Source of the DNA: a virus
Taxonomy: Duplodnaviria; Heunggongvirae; Uroviricota; Caudoviricetes
Virus record (IMG/VR): IMGVR_UViG_3300047444_000069
Coordinates: 1 to 64,000 of that record
Direction: 5' to 3' (one strand)
DNA length: 64,000 nt
Under the pieces are notes generated by a model. It worked only from the letters and a program-made list of their open reading frames with translations, was not told the origin of the DNA and made no database searches. Below are positions 27,211 to 47,703 of the stretch, in pieces (within the stretch, counting starts at the first letter, position 1; each line of letters opens with the position of its first letter). Both the position numbers and the translations under genes were made by a program.

Positions 27211-28008
27211 ATGAAATTTCTGAAAGTCTTGCTGGTTTCCTTTGTAGTCCTGATGATGGCCGCATGTGGCCGCATCGACACCGGTCACTCTGGCGTTCGC
27301 ACAAGCTGGAACAAGATGGTCCAGACACAAGTCGTCACGCCGGGATTCTACGTCGCAGTCACGGACGATGTGACGCAGTACGTCACGAACGAAATCACGT
27401 TCAAGCTGGAAAACGAGAAGCCACAGACCGCCGATAAGTCGTATCTGAAAGACCTCGACGCAACCTATACGTGGCAAGTCACGTCGAACGATCTTCCGAC
27501 ACTGGTGACGCGATTCAAGAATCGAACCTTGGTTCAAGGCGATGACCGCTACCCGATGGGAATTTACGTCGATGCCGTGATGCAGCGCAGCTTGGCACAG
27601 GCCGTCAGCGAAGTCGATGCACTCGATGCAAACCAGAAGCGCACACAGATCGAGAACAATACGATCAAGTTTGCGACCGAGAAGTTCAAAGAAGAAGGAC
27701 TGGACAAAGACATCCACATCAATCAGGTGATGATCAAGAACATCGAGATTGATCCGCGTCTTCAGGAATCGATCCTTCGCAACGTGACTGCACAGAAGGA
27801 CAACCAGACGAAAGACATCGAGATTTCGACCGCCGACAAAGAAGCGAAGCGTATGGCGAAGCTGGCCGAAAACGGTTCGAACGCTAACTACATCGCCCTG
27901 TTGAACGCACAGTCGAACATGAAGATCGCGGAAGGCATCGCGAACGGTCGGGTCAATACCATCGTCGTCCCGGCTGACTTCAAAGGCATCGTGAACACGG
28001 CGAAGTAA
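27211..28008 (+). CDS. SPFH/band-7-like lipoprotein
   Basis: lipobox 'LMMAACG'; 265 aa with SPFH-like central domain and coiled-coil tail. Confidence 0.5.
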   Translation: MKFLKVLLVSFVVLMMAACGRIDTGHSGVRTSWNKMVQTQVVTPGFYVAVTDDVTQYVTNEITFKLENEKPQTADKSYLKDLDATYTWQVTSNDLPTLVTRFKNRTLVQGDDRYPMGIYVDAVMQRSLAQAVSEVDALDANQKRTQIENNTIKFATEKFKEEGLDKDIHINQVMIKNIEIDPRLQESILRNVTAQKDNQTKDIEISTADKEAKRMAKLAENGSNANYIALLNAQSNMKIAEGIANGRVNTIVVPADFKGIVNTAK

Positions 28009-28259
28009 TGGTAACGGTTGACGACATCCTGTATGGCGATGACAACCATCTCTGGAAGCTGCGTGGTGCAGAGGCGACCGAAGTCATCGCCCAAAAGATC
28101 GAAGCGATGAAGCGCCTGTATCAAGAAGTCATCGCCATCGCGGACAACGCCGATCTAAGCGTGCATGTGACGTTCAGCTTCCCGGAAGGGTTGACGACCG
28201 GTCACAACGAATACTTCCGTCCAGAAGTAGCGTGGAATCCATCATCGAAATATTGTTGA
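28008..28259 (+). CDS. member of C-terminal-Cys small-protein family (outlying paralog)
   Basis: 83 aa; '...HVTFSFPEGLTTGHNEYFRPEVAWNPSSKYC' parallels '...FEFTFDGITGSYYTYRP...GWQGSSC' of 40087..40320. Confidence 0.5.
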   Translation: MVTVDDILYGDDNHLWKLRGAEATEVIAQKIEAMKRLYQEVIAIADNADLSVHVTFSFPEGLTTGHNEYFRPEVAWNPSSKYC

Positions 28260-33742: not shown

Positions 33743-35098
33743 ATGTACACAGCGAACATCCATCTGCCACAAAACTTCGTCCTTGAATCGGACTCCTACA
33801 AGTTTTCCCATGTCCCAGAAATCTACCCGGAAGGTACGGAAGCATTGCACGCGTATCTGTCGGCACGCGTGAAGGGTCAACGCGTGGTCCAGTTCGGTCC
33901 CTCGATGTGGATCAAGAAGAAGCTGCTGTCCCCGATCACACTGAAGATGATCAACGAAGCTGATGACTTCATCTCGGCGCACATCGGCCCCGGCGCATTC
34001 AATCGTGCGTTCTGGCTTCACATCCTGAACACGTATGGCGGTTTCATTCCGCTGACGATCCGTGGTCTGCCAGAAGGTACGGTCACGGACAGCTACGACA
34101 CGTTGCTGACGATTCAATGTGACGATCCGGTCTGCTTCCCGCTGGCACAGTTCATCGAAGCATCGCTTCAGTCGGACCTCTGGTACAGCACGACCATCGC
34201 GACGAACGATCTGGAAAACTACGAAGTCGCCAAATCGCACTTCGATTTGTTCTCGGATCAACCGCATCTTCTGCCGTTCATGCTGCATGACTTTGGCGCG
34301 CGGGGTTGTACGTCCGAAGAACAGCGTCAGATCGGCGGCGCTGCGCACCTGATCTTCTTCCAAGGTTCGGACACGATCAGCGGCATCCGTGCAGCAAACC
34401 TGTACTATGGCTGCGAGATGGCCGCGTATTCGGTTCGCGCAACTGAGCACAGCATTCAGTGTGCGTATGGTCCCGAAGGGCAAGAAGCCTACATTCAACG
34501 CGTTCTTGACGCACATGCAAAGCCGGGTAACATCGTCTCGCTGGTGCTTGATGGCTACAACGTCTGGCGCGAAGCTGAACTTCTGTGTACGAAGTTCAAG
34601 GAACAGATCGTCAACAGCGGCGCGAAGATCGTGTTCCGTCCTGATTCGGGCGACATGTTCGAAGTGGTTCCGCGTCTTCTGGAAATGCAAGCTGAAGCGT
34701 TCAGCTACACGGTCAATAGCAAGAACAAGAAGGTCATCAACAATGTCGGCCTGATTCAAGGCGATGGCATCGACAAGACCACGTTCATGTTGATGATGCA
34801 GAAGGTCGTATCCCTCGGCTATGCACCTGAATGCGTCGTCATGGGTTCTGGTGGTGGTCTGCTTCAGAAGGTCAACCGCGATACCCTGAAGTTCGCACAG
34901 AAGGCATCGTCCATCAAGATCAATGGCGAGTGGCGCGATATTTTTAAAGACCCGATTACCGATCCGGGCAAGAAGTCCAAGACGGGTTTGCAAGACGATC
35001 CGCGTTTCGTAACGTACTACACGCCCGATGAAGGTCTGGTATACAACGAAGACCTTGCAACGATCCGGGAACGTGCGTTCGCTGGCGCGGCTGTGTAA
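33743..35098 (+). CDS. nicotinamide phosphoribosyltransferase (NadV/NAMPT)
   Basis: 451 aa; N-terminal 'DSYKFSH' and overall PRTase type II features; adjacent to NadM-Nudix as in vibriophage KVP40. Confidence 0.75.
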   Translation: MYTANIHLPQNFVLESDSYKFSHVPEIYPEGTEALHAYLSARVKGQRVVQFGPSMWIKKKLLSPITLKMINEADDFISAHIGPGAFNRAFWLHILNTYGGFIPLTIRGLPEGTVTDSYDTLLTIQCDDPVCFPLAQFIEASLQSDLWYSTTIATNDLENYEVAKSHFDLFSDQPHLLPFMLHDFGARGCTSEEQRQIGGAAHLIFFQGSDTISGIRAANLYYGCEMAAYSVRATEHSIQCAYGPEGQEAYIQRVLDAHAKPGNIVSLVLDGYNVWREAELLCTKFKEQIVNSGAKIVFRPDSGDMFEVVPRLLEMQAEAFSYTVNSKNKKVINNVGLIQGDGIDKTTFMLMMQKVVSLGYAPECVVMGSGGGLLQKVNRDTLKFAQKASSIKINGEWRDIFKDPITDPGKKSKTGLQDDPRFVTYYTPDEGLVYNEDLATIRERAFAGAAV

Positions 35099-37242: not shown

Positions 37243-38322
37243 ATGAAAAAATTACTGGTTGGTATTTTGTTGTCCTTAGTAACTGTGATCGCATTTGCGT
37301 TGCCGAACCCGCGTCAGATCGAAGATGCATTGGCCGCTGGTCGCTACAACGATGCACAGTCGATGGTGGCGCAAGTCCTCAACGAACGTCCCGATTCGGC
37401 GCGTGCGCACCTGTTGAACGCGTATCTACTGATCCATGTCCAGCACGACAAGACGGCGGCAAACGCTGAACTCAACACGGCTTCTGGTCTGGACCGCAAC
37501 GGCGATGTGAAGAACAGTCCTCTGTTTGGTCGCGTGGTAGGCGAAATCGACACGTACAAGGCCGCTGCGCCGCCCACACGACAGCGGACATACGAACAGA
37601 CCCCGGTCGTCTCGAAAGCCGCCGTATCGCCTGTGGCGTCACCTGTGGTGCAGTCTGAACCCGAGAAAAGTGGTGGTTATGGTTTCGTGATCTTCGTTGT
37701 TCTGTTGGTAGCAGTTTGTATCGGCGTGATTGCCTACCTGTTCATCCGTGGTGTAGACGAGCGGCGCAAGCTGGAATCCTCTTATACGCCGTACACGACA
37801 TCCGGTAGTCGCCAGTTGACCCGGACGCGCAGTGGTGGAACCTACAACGCACCGTACAACCCGCCGCCTGTGCCGCTCGATCCGTATCCGGGTGCAATGT
37901 CGGTTCAGCACTTTCCGGCCCCGGTTCAGGTTGTACAGCAAGCCCCGCAACAATCGTTCGGAAGTCAAGTCGCAGCAACCGCAACCGGTGTCGTCGCTGG
38001 TGAACTGATTCACGACGCCCTGACTAGCAGCAAGCATCATTCCCGGACTTGGGAAGAACCGGTTCGAGAACGCGAAGTTGTTCGTGACCCGGATCAGGGT
38101 TCTTCGCGCAGTTCGTCGTCGCGTGACGAATCCCCGGTGTCGTATAGCAACGAGCGTTCCTCGTTCTCGTCGGGGTCAGATGATAGCTGGTCGTCGCGTA
38201 GTTCCGACAGTTCTTCGTCGTCCTCGTGGGACAGTGGTTCCAGCAGTAGCAGCAGTTCGTGGGATTCCGGTTCCTCGTCGTCGTGGGATTCGGGCAGCAG
38301 TTCGAGTAGTTCCGACTGGTAA
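37243..38322 (+). CDS. membrane protein with signal peptide, TPR-like segment, TM helix and Ser/Trp/Asp repeat tail
   Basis: 'MKKLLVGILLSLVTVIAFA'; TM 'GYGFVIFVVLLVAVCIGVIAYLFI'; C-terminal 'SWDSGSSSS' repeats. Confidence 0.55.
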   Translation: MKKLLVGILLSLVTVIAFALPNPRQIEDALAAGRYNDAQSMVAQVLNERPDSARAHLLNAYLLIHVQHDKTAANAELNTASGLDRNGDVKNSPLFGRVVGEIDTYKAAAPPTRQRTYEQTPVVSKAAVSPVASPVVQSEPEKSGGYGFVIFVVLLVAVCIGVIAYLFIRGVDERRKLESSYTPYTTSGSRQLTRTRSGGTYNAPYNPPPVPLDPYPGAMSVQHFPAPVQVVQQAPQQSFGSQVAATATGVVAGELIHDALTSSKHHSRTWEEPVREREVVRDPDQGSSRSSSSRDESPVSYSNERSSFSSGSDDSWSSRSSDSSSSSSWDSGSSSSSSSWDSGSSSSWDSGSSSSSSDW

Positions 38323-38361: not shown

Positions 38362-38390
38362 TTGACATAGACCGGCATTGAGCGTACAAT
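38362..38390 (+). promoter_or_regulatory. sigma70-like promoter TTGACA-17-TACAAT
   Basis: -35/-10 match, spacer lacks CCCAAAC core. Confidence 0.5.
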
Positions 38391-39140: not shown

Positions 39141-39443
39141 GTGTCGAATAACCTGATTAACAGTCCTGAAGCAAAGAAGCGTTTCAACAACAAGCTGTCG
39201 GAAATCTCGGCGTCCTTTACCCGCGTTGAAGCTGAACGCGATCTGGTGAAGACCATCGTGTCCGACCTCGCTGAAGAATTCCAGATCGACAAGAAGATCG
39301 TCAATCTGCTGGCCCGCACGTATCACAAGTCGGACTTCAAAGAGAAGGTCGCAGAGAAGACCGAATTCGAAATCATCTACGAAACCATTACGGGTGAAAG
39401 CCCGGAAGCCGGTGATTCGTATAACGGCGAAGATGGTGAGTGA
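39141..39443 (+). CDS. hypothetical protein (GTG start)
   Basis: 100 aa, helical, acidic tail. Confidence 0.4.
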   Translation: MSNNLINSPEAKKRFNNKLSEISASFTRVEAERDLVKTIVSDLAEEFQIDKKIVNLLARTYHKSDFKEKVAEKTEFEIIYETITGESPEAGDSYNGEDGE

Positions 39444-39444
39444 G

Positions 39445-39696
39445 ATGACGAAGTACGCAACTGCACAAGAAGCAAATAAGGCAATCGCAGATAAGCTGGC
39501 GCAAGCGCAACAGTTGTTCCGCGAATGTGCCGCGATTGCCGAAGAAGCAAATGTCGAAGTACACACGGACATTCTTGGCCTCTGGGGAACGGGTGTGACA
39601 TACATCCCGAAGTCCGAACGCGAGGAATGGGGTGAAGAAACCCAAGAACGTCTTGAAGAAGATGGCGGATGGATGGCATCCGCATCAAGCTGCTAA
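39445..39696 (+). CDS. C-terminal-Cys family paralog B (ends GGWMASASSC)
   Basis: 83 aa; N-terminal 'AIADKLAQAQQL..ECAAIAEEANVEVH' helix shared with paralog at 41816. Confidence 0.55.
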   Translation: MTKYATAQEANKAIADKLAQAQQLFRECAAIAEEANVEVHTDILGLWGTGVTYIPKSEREEWGEETQERLEEDGGWMASASSC

Positions 39697-39727
39697 AACC
39701 ACACGAAACAAACTGAGAACGACCAAC

Positions 39728-40078
39728 ATGCAACTTACTCGCGACGAAGCACAAATCTTCCTGAACATGATCGACGGCAACGCAACGGTTCCCGACAGTT
39801 CGATGCCGATCCTCGACAAGATTTACAAGGCGTACCCGGACATCCTTCGTGGTACGAAGTACATCAAGCTGCTTAACGAGTGGCAAGCCAATCGCGAGAA
39901 AGTGAAGAAGTCGGCAATGGCACAGATCAGCGAACTGCTGGCCTCGGCCAAGGCAAGCGTCACGGAAGCCGCGCGTATCGCAAAGGCTGCTGGTGTCGGC
40001 TTCGATCTGTCCATCGGTGATCCCGATTATGGTTGCTACTTCGACCCGGTTGAAGGTTGGTCGTCCTCGAACTGCTGA
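39728..40078 (+). CDS. C-terminal-Cys family paralog C (ends EGWSSSNC)
   Basis: 116 aa; 'AKAAGVGFDLSIGDPDYGCYFDP' core. Confidence 0.5.
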   Translation: MQLTRDEAQIFLNMIDGNATVPDSSMPILDKIYKAYPDILRGTKYIKLLNEWQANREKVKKSAMAQISELLASAKASVTEAARIAKAAGVGFDLSIGDPDYGCYFDPVEGWSSSNC

Positions 40079-40086
40079 GAACATTC

Positions 40087-40320
40087 ATGACGCAAATCAC
40101 ACAAGAACAGAAGGCCGAAGCTTCGCGCCTGATCGCAGAGCAAGTCGCTATCGCAGAAGAAGCACTCGCGAAGGCCGAACAGTTGGCGAAGGAAGCGCGA
40201 GTTGGCTTCGAATTCACGTTCGACGGCATCACTGGTTCGTATTACACATATCGCCCGTATGGAAAGACCGACGCGCCGGTTGAAGGTTACTACGATGGTT
40301 GGCAAGGGTCGTCCTGCTGA
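40087..40320 (+). CDS. C-terminal-Cys family paralog D (ends DGWQGSSC)
   Basis: 77 aa; 'AKEARVGFEFTFDGITGSYYTYRP'. Confidence 0.55.
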   Translation: MTQITQEQKAEASRLIAEQVAIAEEALAKAEQLAKEARVGFEFTFDGITGSYYTYRPYGKTDAPVEGYYDGWQGSSC

Positions 40321-40631
40321 TGGACAAGCAATTCCTCGCAGAGCGCAAGAAAGCCGTTAAGGAAATTGCGCGACTGACGGCACTTCAGAAGCAATGCATC
40401 GAAAGCATCGAAGAACTGGCTGACCAGTACGGCATCCGCGTTGAACTGGACCTTCCGGCAACGGGTTACAACGGCGACGTGTGGTATGTGCCGAACCTGC
40501 CAGAAGAACTTCGAGAGAAGATTGACGCCGGTGAAGATGTTGACCTGTCGGGCACGGAATGGGAAGAATCCGCCGAATTCGATTCTTACGGCGAACAACA
40601 CGGCTGGAAGAACAGTTCGTCATACTGCTGA
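40320..40631 (+). CDS. C-terminal-Cys family paralog E (ends HGWKNSSSYC)
   Basis: 103 aa; 'YGIRVELDLPATGYNGDVWYVP'; start overlaps upstream stop. Confidence 0.55.
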   Translation: MDKQFLAERKKAVKEIARLTALQKQCIESIEELADQYGIRVELDLPATGYNGDVWYVPNLPEELREKIDAGEDVDLSGTEWEESAEFDSYGEQHGWKNSSSYC

Positions 40632-40634
40632 ACC

Positions 40635-40877
40635 ATGACAGACAAGATGACACAAGAAGAAGCCGCGAAGTTCGTATCGGCTTTGGCTGAAAGTATTCGC
40701 ACGACGCTTCGGACCATCGTTCAAGTTGCAGACGAACATGATCTGGATGTGAAGTTGCTGGATGAATTTGACAATTACCTTCGTTACTACGGTCGCACAT
40801 GGACCGAAGAAGATACCGATGGCGGAATCGAGTACGTTCGAACCGGTGACGGCGGATGGTATAGTTCACACTGCTGA
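40635..40877 (+). CDS. C-terminal-Cys family paralog F (ends GGWYSSHC)
   Basis: 80 aa. Confidence 0.5.
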   Translation: MTDKMTQEEAAKFVSALAESIRTTLRTIVQVADEHDLDVKLLDEFDNYLRYYGRTWTEEDTDGGIEYVRTGDGGWYSSHC

Positions 40878-40889
40878 GTAAAAACAAAC

Positions 40890-41819
40890 ATGATTATCAT
40901 TGGTTCGAAAGCACTGGTAGCACGCGGCATTCAAACGGGTCGCAAGTCGTTCGACATCGACGTGGTAGGCGAGTATGACGAAATCGTTGACTATGCGAAG
41001 AAGTATCACGGCAACATTCGCGCATGTTACCCGATTGATGAAGGCAAGAAGCTGGTAGTGAAGACGGACCGGACGATCATCGAAGGTGAAATCACATGGG
41101 AAGGATCGAGCGCAGCGGCCCTGCGTGATCTGATCCTTACCGACCCCCAGACGATCCATGCGCGTGACTTTGTAGGCCATCGTTTCGCGTCCCTTGACGT
41201 GCTGTACATGCTGAAGATGTCGCACCGCTATCTGAAGGATTCGCCTCACTTCCTGAAGACGATGAAAGACATCCAGTTGATGCGTTCGAAGGGTGCAACG
41301 ATCCGCCCGGAACACGAAGCGTTCTATCAACAACGGATGAAGGACACCTACGTCTATAAGCATCCGAAGCTGGATCAGTCGAAGAAAGACTTCTTCAATG
41401 GCGATGGCGTGAAGTACGTCTATGATCATGACAGCATCCATGAAGCAGTGAAGCATCTGATCAAACCGGCCTACACGTTCTACAAGCCCGACGAGAACGA
41501 AGTGAACTGTTCGAAAGACATGTTCTACGCAGTCCCGAAGATCATCCGGCTGTATGGTGGTCTGGAAGAAATATATGTACTTGCCTTAGAGAGAAGTCAG
41601 ATTCCGTTCGGTGATCTGTGGTCCCCGAAGAAGTCGTTCGACATGGCGCTGATGAAGGTCTGTACGTCGATCACATCGGGCTGGTTCCGCGAGTTCTGTT
41701 GGGAGCATTACGACGAGATTCAATCGCTTTACGACCCGGAATATGTTGAGAAGTTTTGGGCGAAGGCAATGGCGGGCGAAGTGAAGCCCTACAATATCGA
41801 AGAAGACGTTTACGCATGA
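40890..41819 (+). CDS. Pol-beta-superfamily nucleotidyltransferase-fold protein
   Basis: N-terminal 'IIGSKALVARGIQTGRKSFDIDVVG' = hG[GS]x9-13Dh[DE]h NTase signature; 309 aa; embedded in the paralog array. Confidence 0.5.
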   Translation: MIIIGSKALVARGIQTGRKSFDIDVVGEYDEIVDYAKKYHGNIRACYPIDEGKKLVVKTDRTIIEGEITWEGSSAAALRDLILTDPQTIHARDFVGHRFASLDVLYMLKMSHRYLKDSPHFLKTMKDIQLMRSKGATIRPEHEAFYQQRMKDTYVYKHPKLDQSKKDFFNGDGVKYVYDHDSIHEAVKHLIKPAYTFYKPDENEVNCSKDMFYAVPKIIRLYGGLEEIYVLALERSQIPFGDLWSPKKSFDMALMKVCTSITSGWFREFCWEHYDEIQSLYDPEYVEKFWAKAMAGEVKPYNIEEDVYA

Positions 41820-42076
41820 TCAAGAAAGATAAAGAATTGGTTTCAAAGGCAATCGCGGCAAAGCTGGCGCAAGCTGATGTACTGTTGGCCGAATGCGTGA
41901 TGCTGGCCGAAGAAAGCGGTGTATGTTTCGAACTTCCGTGGGGCGGTGAAGGCACACAGCAACGCGGCATGGGGGCTGGTTACGTCCCGACAACCGCAAG
42001 CGAACGCGACAAAGAGTGGAACATCACGAACTACGATGATTCCACTGGTTGGCAACCGTCTGCGGGAATCTGCTAA
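41816..42076 (+). CDS. C-terminal-Cys family paralog G (ends TGWQPSAGIC)
   Basis: 86 aa; 'AIAAKLAQADVLLAECVMLAEESGVCFEL'; ATGA-coupled to NTase gene. Confidence 0.55.
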   Translation: MIKKDKELVSKAIAAKLAQADVLLAECVMLAEESGVCFELPWGGEGTQQRGMGAGYVPTTASERDKEWNITNYDDSTGWQPSAGIC

Positions 42077-42082
42077 AAGTAG

Positions 42083-42115
42083 TTGACAAAGGTGGGGATT
42101 CTCGTTAGAATCCCC
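42083..42115 (+). promoter_or_regulatory. early promoter TTGACA-17-TAGAAT with 9-bp IR across -10
   Basis: GGGGATTCT 42094-42102 / AGAATCCCC 42107-42115. Confidence 0.6.
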
Positions 42116-46317: not shown

Positions 46318-47703
46318 ATGTCCGTACTTGAAATCCTGAATCAAATCGCCGCTACGTCGAAGAAGACGGAGAAAGAAGCGATCCTAAAGCAACACGCGGA
46401 AAATGAAACCCTGAAGCGGGTCTTCTATCTCGCGTATCAACCAACCATCAACTTCTACACGAAGCGCATCCCCGCATACACGCCCAATACGGGCGAGAAG
46501 TCGATCTTTGACGACGAAGATACCTTCACCCTCGATGCGGCGCTTGACGCCATTGAGACGGTTCTGGCGAAGCGCAAGGTGACTGGCAACGCAGCATCGA
46601 CGTATCTCGCGAATCTCCTGACGCAACTCCATGCTGACGACGCCACGGTCCTTGAACGGGTCGTACTGCGTGACCTTCGTATCGACGCGGGCGCAAACAC
46701 GGCTAACAAGGTCTGGAAGGCGCTGATCCTTGATGTCCCCTACATGCGGTGCAGTCTCCCCAAGGAAGTCAAACTAGCCACGTTTCCGTGGGCCACAGGG
46801 CTATATTCGCAACTGAAGTCGGACGGCAGCTTCACGAACGTCAACGTGTACGAAGATGGCACGGTTGAATTAATGACGCGCAACGGCAACGTCTACCCGG
46901 AAGAAGATTTCGCTCCGATTGCGAACATCTTCCGTGCGGCTGAAGGTACATGCGGCTATCAGTTCCACGGTGAATTGCTGGTCTACAAAGACGGCGAATT
47001 GATGGAACGCGCCGAAGGCAACGGCGTTCTGAACAAGATTCAACAAGGCAAGAACAAGCTTCCTGCCGGTCACGAAATCCGCTACGTCGCATGGGACATG
47101 ATCCCGATTGAAGCGGCGGTTCCGAAGGGCAAATATGAAGTCCCGTATGCGGTGCGCCTCGATGATCTTGAAAGTCTGAAGTTGTCTGGTGTGGTGTCCG
47201 TGGTTGAAACGAAAGTCGTCCATACGATCCGGGAAGCATACGAGCACTATCAGGAACAGTTGGCCCTTGGTCTGGAAGGCACGATCCTGAAAGACCCAGA
47301 AGCGATCTGGCAAGATACGACCAGTAAACAGCAGGTGAAATTCAAGCTAGAAGTCTGTGTTGAGCTTGAATGTGTCGGCTTCAATCCGGGCAAGGGTAAG
47401 AACGCTTCAACTTTCGGTAGCGCCAAGCTTCGTTCTTCTGATGGTCTGTTGACGGTGAACTGTTCGGGCTTCAAAGATGCCGACCGTAAGTACATCAGCG
47501 AGAACCGTGACGACTTCATCAGCACCATCTGGGCGGTCAAATCAAACGCCATGACGAAGAAGCGTGCCGATGGAACCCGCAGTCTGTTCTTGCCGCAGTA
47601 CGTCGAACAACGCAACGACAAGACCGAAGCTGATTCACTCGAACGCATCGAACTCCAATTCGAATCGGCAGTGACCGACCTCGAAAAACTGATTGCAATG
47701 TAA
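46318..47703 (+). CDS. ATP-dependent DNA ligase (T4 gp30-like)
   Basis: 461 aa; N-terminus 'LEILNQIAATSKKTEKEAILKQHAENETLKRVFYLAY' matches T4 ligase 'LKILNEIASIGSTKQKQAILEKNKDNELLKRVYRLTY'; 'GLEGTILKD' motif. Confidence 0.85.
   Translation: MSVLEILNQIAATSKKTEKEAILKQHAENETLKRVFYLAYQPTINFYTKRIPAYTPNTGEKSIFDDEDTFTLDAALDAIETVLAKRKVTGNAASTYLANLLTQLHADDATVLERVVLRDLRIDAGANTANKVWKALILDVPYMRCSLPKEVKLATFPWATGLYSQLKSDGSFTNVNVYEDGTVELMTRNGNVYPEEDFAPIANIFRAAEGTCGYQFHGELLVYKDGELMERAEGNGVLNKIQQGKNKLPAGHEIRYVAWDMIPIEAAVPKGKYEVPYAVRLDDLESLKLSGVVSVVETKVVHTIREAYEHYQEQLALGLEGTILKDPEAIWQDTTSKQQVKFKLEVCVELECVGFNPGKGKNASTFGSAKLRSSDGLLTVNCSGFKDADRKYISENRDDFISTIWAVKSNAMTKKRADGTRSLFLPQYVEQRNDKTEADSLERIELQFESAVTDLEKLIAM

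Follow-up and report, generated by a model that had tools for sequence, protein, structure and literature searches.

Small phage proteins with a conserved cysteine-ending tail form a gene pair with a Pol-beta-type nucleotidyltransferase

The virus record IMGVR_UViG_3300047444_000069 of IMG/VR, which belongs to the Caudoviricetes, encodes several small proteins that share a conserved C-terminal tail with cysteine as the last residue (Cys-tailed proteins). We analysed positions 1 to 64,000 of this record (the window), and find that the Cys-tailed proteins and a nucleotidyltransferase (NTase), encoded at 40890-41819, form a conserved, near-obligate gene pair. The linkage suggests a two-part phage system that has not been described before: NTases with a small protein as dedicated partner are a known kind of arrangement, while the pairing with Cys-tailed proteins is new. 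A preliminary description of the window, made from the sequence alone, had listed the NTase as a side remark; given its conserved pairing with the small-protein genes, the NTase is the key to the finding. All coordinates without a prefix are window positions, whereas L numbers denote IMG/VR or phage loci and P numbers denote database members of the small-protein family.

Linkage of the Cys-tailed genes to the NTase gene

On the NTase side, we scanned 80 IMG/VR loci representing 63 NTase clusters at 70% identity, 62 of which had at least 1 kb of upstream DNA. A Cys-tailed gene adjoined the NTase gene in 60 of these 62 lineages (~97%). A member ended at most 100 nt upstream of the NTase gene in 41 lineages and at most 1.5 kb upstream in 54, and was present only downstream in 5; at L087, a member was confirmed by eye, adding one lineage. 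The only NTase lineages without a detectable Cys-tailed member were L072 and L101/L103. Each NTase gene was accompanied by one to seven Cys-tailed genes, and in the scanned loci 191 members were on the NTase strand versus one on the opposite strand. On the small-protein side, the NTase gene was immediately downstream of six of six arbitrarily chosen metagenomic members (P0024, P0036, P0109, P0128, P0031 and P0058), including those on short contigs, which end within the NTase gene. Because tblastn with single small proteins, which returned only 3 and 21 records, was too insensitive for this family, we used scans of the fetched loci with hidden Markov models (HMMs); a megablast search of the region against phage genomes gave no match.

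The pair is present in the T4-like phages JS98, 44RR2.8t (Aeromonas), fHyAci03 (Acinetobacter) and phiR1-RT (Yersinia), in the last of which g126-g128 precede the NTase gene g125. It is also present in Phapecoctavirus nieznany, Otagovirus phiPsa374, Pseudomonas phage SYP, Ralstonia phage RSP15 and the 344-kb phage RsoM2USA, as well as in Stenotrophomonas phage Yut3 (Menderavirus), where the Cys-tailed gene is downstream of the NTase gene. The genes flanking the pair differ between phages. Moreover, the annotation of JS98 indicates a homologue in RB69. Therapeutically relevant or well-studied phages with the module include JS98, 44RR2.8t, phiR1-RT, the phAPEC8/rV5-like coliphages and phages of Acinetobacter and Pseudomonas syringae as well as jumbo phages of Ralstonia. 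The genome of T4 contains neither the NTase gene nor Cys-tailed genes, and this absence may be the reason that nobody has studied the module. Finally, among 185,579 bacterial and archaeal species, each represented by one genome, only six contigs from metagenome-assembled genomes matched; all six look phage-like and all carry the pair. We conclude that the pair is phage-restricted and essentially absent from bacterial genomes.

The window contains seven Cys-tailed open reading frames (ORFs) on the plus strand that encode proteins of 77-116 amino acids (aa), six of them within 39445-42076 and one, the outlier, at 28008-28259. Member 1 (39445-39696; 83 aa) has the tail GGWMASASSC and matches phrog_899 with E = 2.6e-11; its start is ambiguous, ATG at 39433 or ATG at 39445, and the length of 83 aa refers to the latter. 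Member 2 (39728-40078; 116 aa) has an N-terminal extension and the tail EGWSSSNC (E = 1.8e-4), and is followed by member 3 (40087-40320; 77 aa; DGWQGSSC; E = 1.4e-5), member 4 (40320-40631; 103 aa; HGWKNSSSYC; E = 4.7e-4) and member 5 (40635-40877; 80 aa; GGWYSSHC; E = 1.6e-5), which is directly upstream of the NTase gene and ends 13 nt before its start. Member 6 (41816-42076; 86 aa; TGWQPSAGIC; E = 3.4e-5) follows the NTase gene. Six of the seven genes thus flank the NTase gene, the exception being the outlier (28008-28259; 83 aa; AWNPSSKYC; E = 2.6e-3), the start of which overlaps the stop of an SPFH/Band-7 lipoprotein-like gene (27211-28008; phrog_200). Members 3 and 4 overlap at their stop and start codons as TGATG, and the NTase gene and member 6 as ATGA; because of these overlaps, both combinations appear to be translationally coupled.

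All seven proteins are acidic (pI 4.4-5.1) and belong to phrog_899, a family of unknown function (E = 2.6e-11 to 2.6e-3), with matches that cover approximately positions 141-221 of the 221 profile positions, i.e. its C-terminal part. The family HMM built here recovers the window members, the outlier with E = 2.6e-19. Scans of the small proteins against Pfam, NCBIfam and PADLOC gave no match, and literature searches covering the DUF, Pfam and PHROG identifiers, MenT-like phage enzymes and phage proteins with a C-terminal cysteine gave nothing on this system; within the library searched, no paper named the DUF or PHROG identifiers or reported the pairing or the tail. The preliminary description had reported the seven ORFs with exactly these coordinates, lengths and C-termini and an NTase-fold gene inside the array, and had not recognised the family from any characterised phage protein; our searches bear out each of these statements, phrog_899 being the only family matched.

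Several loci show other arrangements. One 157-kb contig (IMGVR_UViG_3300012943_000029) has two NTase copies, at L060 and L072, and a Cys-tailed neighbour at only one of them. Shorter, distant homologues of the NTase domain DUF7275 in Gordonia, Streptomyces and Vibrio R16F phages have no Cys-tailed neighbour. Directly downstream of these short DUF7275 genes is a different small gene, which is mutually homologous between the loci (L010:4618-4908, L011:5615-5953 and L012:5602-5967) and encodes proteins of 96-121 aa ending in K[PT]IT.YE; this gene may represent an alternative partner family. In phiR1-RT, g124 (L118:4427-4690) is directly downstream of the NTase gene and overlaps its stop; the encoded protein is very acidic, comprises 87 aa and ends in ...SWESDYEEDYESSEDY without a terminal Cys, and could be a further partner or a degenerated relative. 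P0279 (377 aa) was considered as a fusion of a small protein and the NTase, which would have spoken for a direct interaction of the two, and was rejected as a gene-calling artefact, since an in-frame TAG is followed by a ribosome-binding site and a GTG start (L031:107-1240); the call may have been made with an alternative genetic code.

The tail motif and the small-protein family

In a MAFFT alignment of the window proteins with their relatives, three positions are invariant, i.e. a Trp, a Ser three residues after it (W+3) and the terminal Cys, which gives the motif W-x-x-S-(x or xxx)-C-COOH. The short form is present in three window paralogues (WSSSNC, WQGSSC and WYSSHC) and the long form in the other four, and W-x-x-S-(1-3 residues)-C is at the extreme C-terminus of all seven. 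Seven ORFs of at least 50 aa in the window match the pattern W..S.{1,3}C$, compared to a mean of 0.095 and a maximum of 1 in 200 codon shuffles, and there are none in the complete 169-kb T4 genome. The codon shuffles and the T4 control rule out chance or an overlapping-ORF artefact as the origin of the motif.

Among 167 family sequences, which were retrieved with a profile that includes the motif, Cys is the very last residue in 163 and is followed by a single residue in the remaining four. Of the 167, 154 have the canonical tail G-W-x-[S/A/P]-S-S-x-[S/N/G]-C, and all 167 have Ser at W+3, for which Thr never substitutes; the position of this Ser is fixed relative to Trp and not to the C-terminus. 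Internal Cys residues are rare (frequency 0.8%), and only 25 of the 167 have a Tyr in the tail. Among the NTase-adjacent members, Cys is the last residue in 175 of 191, and it is the last residue in every one of 20 homologues from a word-indexed search. Altogether, approximately 2-8% of the members have 1-3 residues after the Cys, e.g. ICNGY and MCGYL in RSP15. In addition, the motif is duplicated in a subfamily, where W-x-S-S-S-C with YGE after it occurs internally and the C-terminus bears the other copy (e.g. ...DWLSSSCYGEADEGF...IWESSSC); this subfamily was found at L007:4365-4625, L008:3703-3927, L013:4534-4953 and L118:2697-2918, the latter being g128 of phiR1-RT.

The same six-gene array is present in related phage contigs, where each paralogue keeps its own tail (GWKNSSSYC, GGWYSSHC, GWQPSAG[IT]C and DGW[QE]GS[SA]C). 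The orthologue of member 1 in L033 ends in EGWQASASSC at 51% identity overall, and the tail of member 4 is retained in an orthologue at 41% identity. Member 2 has the orthologues P0014, P0016 and P0018, and those of the outlier (P0012, P0015, P0017, P0019 and P0020) share the ending AWNPS[SA]K[YR]C. Between related contigs, the identity of the small proteins is only 51-82% at an NTase identity of 89%, and 32-58% at an NTase identity of 66%. The persistence of paralogue-specific tails despite this divergence provides direct evidence that the terminus is under purifying selection. As judged from these sequence comparisons, it is strongly supported that selection acts on the C-terminus itself. 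The preliminary description had proposed such selection on a G-W-x-S-S-x-C terminus. The proposal holds, as do the Trp, the Ser and the terminal Cys, and the precise pattern is replaced by the motif given above; homologues lacking a terminal Cys, which would have spoken against it, are confined to those few with 1-3 extra residues, and a few members contain an internal copy of the motif.

One explanation of such a terminus treats the NTase as a syntenic neighbour with an independent function. The tail would then be a host docking motif or a degron, read by a C-terminus-recognising protease or a PDZ-like domain, or else an oligomerisation metal site. A free terminal residue after Ser/Thr-type positions is reminiscent of motifs recognised at the C-terminus, the outlier at 28008 is far from the NTase gene, and two to three NTase lineages have no detectable member. 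However, adjacency in ~97% of 62 divergent lineages together with the six of six reverse look-ups, in unrelated phages and with different flanks, is hard to account for by synteny alone. Moreover, T4 lacks both genes together, and the Ser is fixed relative to Trp rather than to the C-terminus, unlike in PDZ-type ligands. We consider this explanation unlikely.

The family as a whole is large. HMMER searches against 1.84 billion cluster representatives identified at least 1,237 clusters (50% identity) at E ≤ 1e-3 and 370 clusters at E ≤ 1e-10. The proteins are folded domains of 65-140 aa, and each paralogue lineage is retained as an orthologue across related phages. Most members contain a [YF]-G-x-G-[GA] loop, typically AYGMGGTY, which is located 20-66 residues before the C-terminus. 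In an AlphaFold model of the first paralogue (predicted local distance difference test (pLDDT) score 70.6), a long N-terminal helix comprising residues 7-35 is confident while the C-terminal half is unreliable; the tail has a pLDDT below 50 and is probably flexible or disordered. The family layout, from the N-terminus, is a long helix, a short beta element, in most cases the Y-G-M-G-G-x-Y loop, a variable acidic linker and the invariant tail. The family profile matched only de novo designed helical proteins in the PDB, which we rejected as an artefact of helix composition. In a published toxicity screen of hypothetical phiR1-RT genes, g126, g127 and g128 gave relative transformant counts (CFU) of 0.94, 0.69 and 1.08 in E. 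coli, and the NTase g125 was outside this screen (PMC6893735 supplement). The small proteins g126-g128 alone are not toxic in E. coli.

This layout could also be that of specificity adaptors, in which the conserved helix and tail would bind the NTase and the variable acidic middle would recruit different host targets for nucleotidylylation. The conserved ends with a middle of variable length (the 20-66 residues from the Gly loop to the C-terminus), the variation from one to seven paralogues per enzyme and the retention of paralogue lineages as orthologues across related phages agree with such a role. However, the most conserved element holds a nucleophilic Ser and a Cys, which suggests chemistry over mere tethering, and we regard adaptors as improbable.

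The NTase and candidate functions of the pair

The NTase gene (40890-41819, plus strand) encodes a protein of 309 aa with an N-terminal DUF7277 domain and a helical DUF7275 domain. The Pfam scores are 232.2 bits for PF23940 (DUF7275) and 36.9 bits for PF23942 (DUF7277), the gathering cut-off being 27 for both. At least 2,734 homologues were found at E < 1e-5, and 727 phage records carry the NTase. Across 56 aligned homologues, the Pol-beta signature is evident: G5 and S6 of the hG[GS] motif and D22 never vary, and D24 and E65, the latter being the third carboxylate, are nearly invariant. In the helical domain, K109, H112, R113, H180, D181, H184, E226, E227, R235 and K256 are invariant or nearly invariant; K109..H112-R113 lie in one helix, and conserved charged residues are numerous in DUF7275. 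With its catalytic residues intact, the NTase is predicted to be catalytically competent.

The structure model of the NTase (pLDDT 92) matched MenT1, MenT3 and MenT4 best, with ANT(2'') likewise among the closest solved folds, and also TglT, LnuA, CCA-adding enzymes and poly(A) polymerases. Each of these matches spans only ~130-170 residues; therefore, the NTase core is clear and the remainder of the protein is without a solved relative. By its motifs and its alpha-beta NTase core, the protein is a member of the Pol-beta-like nucleotidyltransferase superfamily. Its sequence gave no match in the PDB and nothing in PADLOC or NCBIfam scans, and the Pfam scan did not detect the DUF1814 (MenT/AbiEii) signature by sequence. 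Among predicted viral structures (BFVD), only unnamed or DUF7275 proteins matched; these include DUF7275 proteins of 508-571 aa in the giant eukaryotic viruses Sylvanvirus and Satyrvirus (A0A3G5AJ90 and A0A3G5AE53), and the enzyme family therefore extends beyond phages.

We tentatively favour the reading that the tail is a short linear motif that serves the NTase as an acceptor for Ser O-nucleotidylylation, a reading for which we infer the contact, the chemistry, the modified residue and the downstream role alike. The small proteins would act together with the co-transcribed NTase, and the tail would enter the active-site cleft as the acceptor. There, the enzyme would place a nucleotidyl group, AMP, UMP, CMP or GMP, on the Ser at W+3 through its hydroxyl, with the Trp as the anchor. 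The terminal Cys, with its thiol and free carboxylate, might aid binding or metal coordination or join a follow-up reaction. In this way, a single enzyme could switch or arm a diversifying set of early-expressed effectors for host takeover or counter-defence. The near-obligate linkage, the intact catalytic residues, a fold like that of O-nucleotidyltransferases and MenT toxins and the lack of toxicity of g126-g128 on their own support this reading. Moreover, one to seven small genes per enzyme gene is the pattern of several substrates per enzyme, and the invariant Trp, Ser and Cys, the persistence of the tails and the predicted flexibility make the tail look like a recognition or acceptor motif.

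Several observations weigh against the tail as an NTase substrate. Known protein-modifying enzymes with an NTase fold (GlnD, GlnE, MntA and DrrA) target Tyr and not Ser. Simple nucleotidylylation of Ser leaves the strict conservation of the terminal Cys unexplained, and the residues that follow the Cys in some members imply that the Cys carboxylate need not be free in every case. The tail statistics come from sequences selected with a motif-containing profile, and the outlier at 28008 is separated from the NTase gene by 12 kb. Finally, the nearest solved folds, MenT1, MenT3 and MenT4, target tRNA and are kept in check by antitoxins encoded upstream, which favours a role of the small proteins as inhibitors.

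In such toxin-antitoxin (TA)-like control, a MenT/AbiEii-like NTase would nucleotidylate host tRNA 3' ends or other nucleic acid for host shut-off or counter-defence, and the small proteins would be MenA1-like inhibitors or regulators, with the helix lying across the enzyme and the tail plugging the active site as a pseudo-substrate. MenA1, a protein of 68 aa dominated by one long helix and encoded directly upstream of menT1, blocks the active site of its enzyme, and its C-terminus is dispensable (PMC10435456). Like MenA1-MenT1 and other MenT/AbiEii TA systems, the pair described here combines a short protein of ~70 aa, built on a long helix, with a bi-lobed Pol-beta-type NTase encoded directly downstream, as in the 41 lineages with a member within 100 nt and for member 5 of the window. 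The family matches MenA1 in size, in its helix (residues 7-35) and in gene order, with frequent translational coupling, and a pI of ~4.4 is as expected of an occupant of a nucleic-acid-binding cleft; in addition, RNA ligase genes are near the pair in RSP15 and in a Streptomyces phage. In contrast to the chromosomal MenAT systems, the pair is phage-specific, and up to seven "antitoxin" paralogues per enzyme gene would be atypical. Moreover, the invariant and most conserved element of the partner is here the C-terminal W-x-x-S-S-x-x-C tail, as opposed to the dispensable C-terminus of MenA1. Altogether, we rate inhibition as somewhat unlikely.

The tail as a substrate has parallels among enzymes that modify proteins. 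In the type VII TA system MntA-HepT, in GlnD-PII and in GlnE-glutamine synthetase, a Pol-beta-type NTase with the GS...DxD motif switches a partner encoded nearby by covalent modification of a hydroxyl. In these pairs the acceptor is Tyr, whereas the conserved hydroxyl here is that of Ser. The small proteins have no HEPN match in Pfam and no PII fold, R.{4,6}H occurs in only 12 of the 167, as a chance match, and the Pfam scan detected no HD domain in the NTase. With neither the RX4-6H motif nor a Tyr acceptor, we rejected an assignment to HEPN-MNT (MntA-HepT). The O-nucleotidyltransferases ANT(2'')-Ia and LnuA differ in having small-molecule substrates, no partner protein and no DUF7275 domain of 200 aa. 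The holo-acyl carrier protein (ACP) synthases CitX and MdcG, which are of the nucleotidyltransferase class, attach a phosphodiester-linked group to an invariant Ser of a small acidic protein from the same operon. We found no sequence or fold match to these enzymes and no CitG/MdcB-type precursor synthase nearby, and the acceptor Ser of those ACPs is internal. Ubiquitin-like or sulfur-carrier proteins (ThiS, MoaD and Pup) were rejected, as 0 of the 167 end in GG and no ThiF/E1 domain is encoded nearby.

It is possible, yet doubtful, that the pair constitutes a phage-specific system of post-translational modification, in which the DUF7277-DUF7275 NTase would covalently modify the Ser/Cys tail of a diversifying set of small early proteins, an undescribed C-terminal modification. 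The product would be a stable protein-nucleotide conjugate or, by nucleotidylylation-driven dehydration and addition of the Cys, a C-terminal thioether ring, and many virulent phages of Gram-negative bacteria might use it for host takeover or counter-defence.

The ring belongs to a purely inferential scheme, resembling the biosynthesis of ribosomally synthesized and post-translationally modified peptides (RiPPs), in which O-nucleotidylylation of the Ser would lead to dehydroalanine and addition of the terminal Cys thiol to a lanthionine-type ring, S-x-C or S-x-x-x-C. In RiPP arrays, such as the ProcA genes with ProcM, and in aminovinylcysteine (AviCys) or lanthionine C-terminal rings, divergent precursors are encoded beside one enzyme, and a pair of Ser and Cys lies close to the C-terminus, the Cys being the final residue. 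Several divergent, precursor-like genes are likewise found here beside one enzyme gene, one to seven per NTase, with a C-terminal core of Ser and Cys; this is a resemblance only. Also compatible with a crosslink are the Ser that is never Thr, the invariant Cys and just two preferred Ser-to-Cys spacings (+2 and +4), and the large, conserved second domain of the NTase with invariant H112, H180, D181, H184, E226 and E227 could hold a second activity. However, we know of no precedent for dehydration driven by nucleotidylylation. In the operon and the sequence flanking it, Pfam and PHROG scans detected only DsbA-like, NTase, TPR/DUF2076, nicotinamide phosphoribosyltransferase (NAMPT) and ligase proteins, and no LanB, LanC, LanM, LanKC, LanL or LanD domain, protease or exporter, and we rejected a classical lanthipeptide or AviCys cluster. 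Moreover, the conserved part is here the tail and not a leader, so that a conserved "core" with a variable remainder is the reverse of the classical leader/core arrays, and the products are folded domains of 65-140 aa rather than peptides. We regard such a crosslink as very improbable.

Whether the tail is an NTase substrate or the pair works otherwise, the pair could prove to represent a new protein modification, a phage MenT-like enzyme with a new class of regulators or a new mechanism of host takeover or anti-defence. Any of these would provide a function for two large families of "unknown" proteins, phrog_899 and DUF7275/DUF7277.

The neighbourhood of the pair in the window

Two sigma-70-like promoters predicted on the plus strand from their match to the consensus, each at 11 of 12 positions, bracket the array and the NTase gene. 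The first (TTGACA-17-TACAAT, 38362-38390) is upstream of the transcription unit of the array, and the second (TTGACA-17-TAGAAT, 42083-42111) is located 7 nt after the last family gene, at the start of the next unit. Because of these flanking promoters, the array and the NTase gene appear to belong to one early-type transcription unit, which further comprises two ORFs without an assigned function and a DsbA-like gene. The latter (39141-39443), directly upstream of the array, encodes a homologue of the T4 late-transcription regulator DsbA (Pfam Phage_DsbA, E = 2.9e-9; phrog_639), which supports a T4-like phage origin of the window.

Upstream of this unit, 37243-38322 encodes a protein of 359 aa in which a TPR repeat is combined with a C-terminal region resembling DUF2076; no PHROG family matches this protein, which is unusual in an early region of a phage. 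Finally, the window encodes a NAMPT (NAMPT_N + NAPRTase; 33743-35098) and an ATP-dependent DNA ligase (46318-47703), and 44RR2.8t and Yut3 likewise have NAMPT genes within a few kb of their NTase modules.

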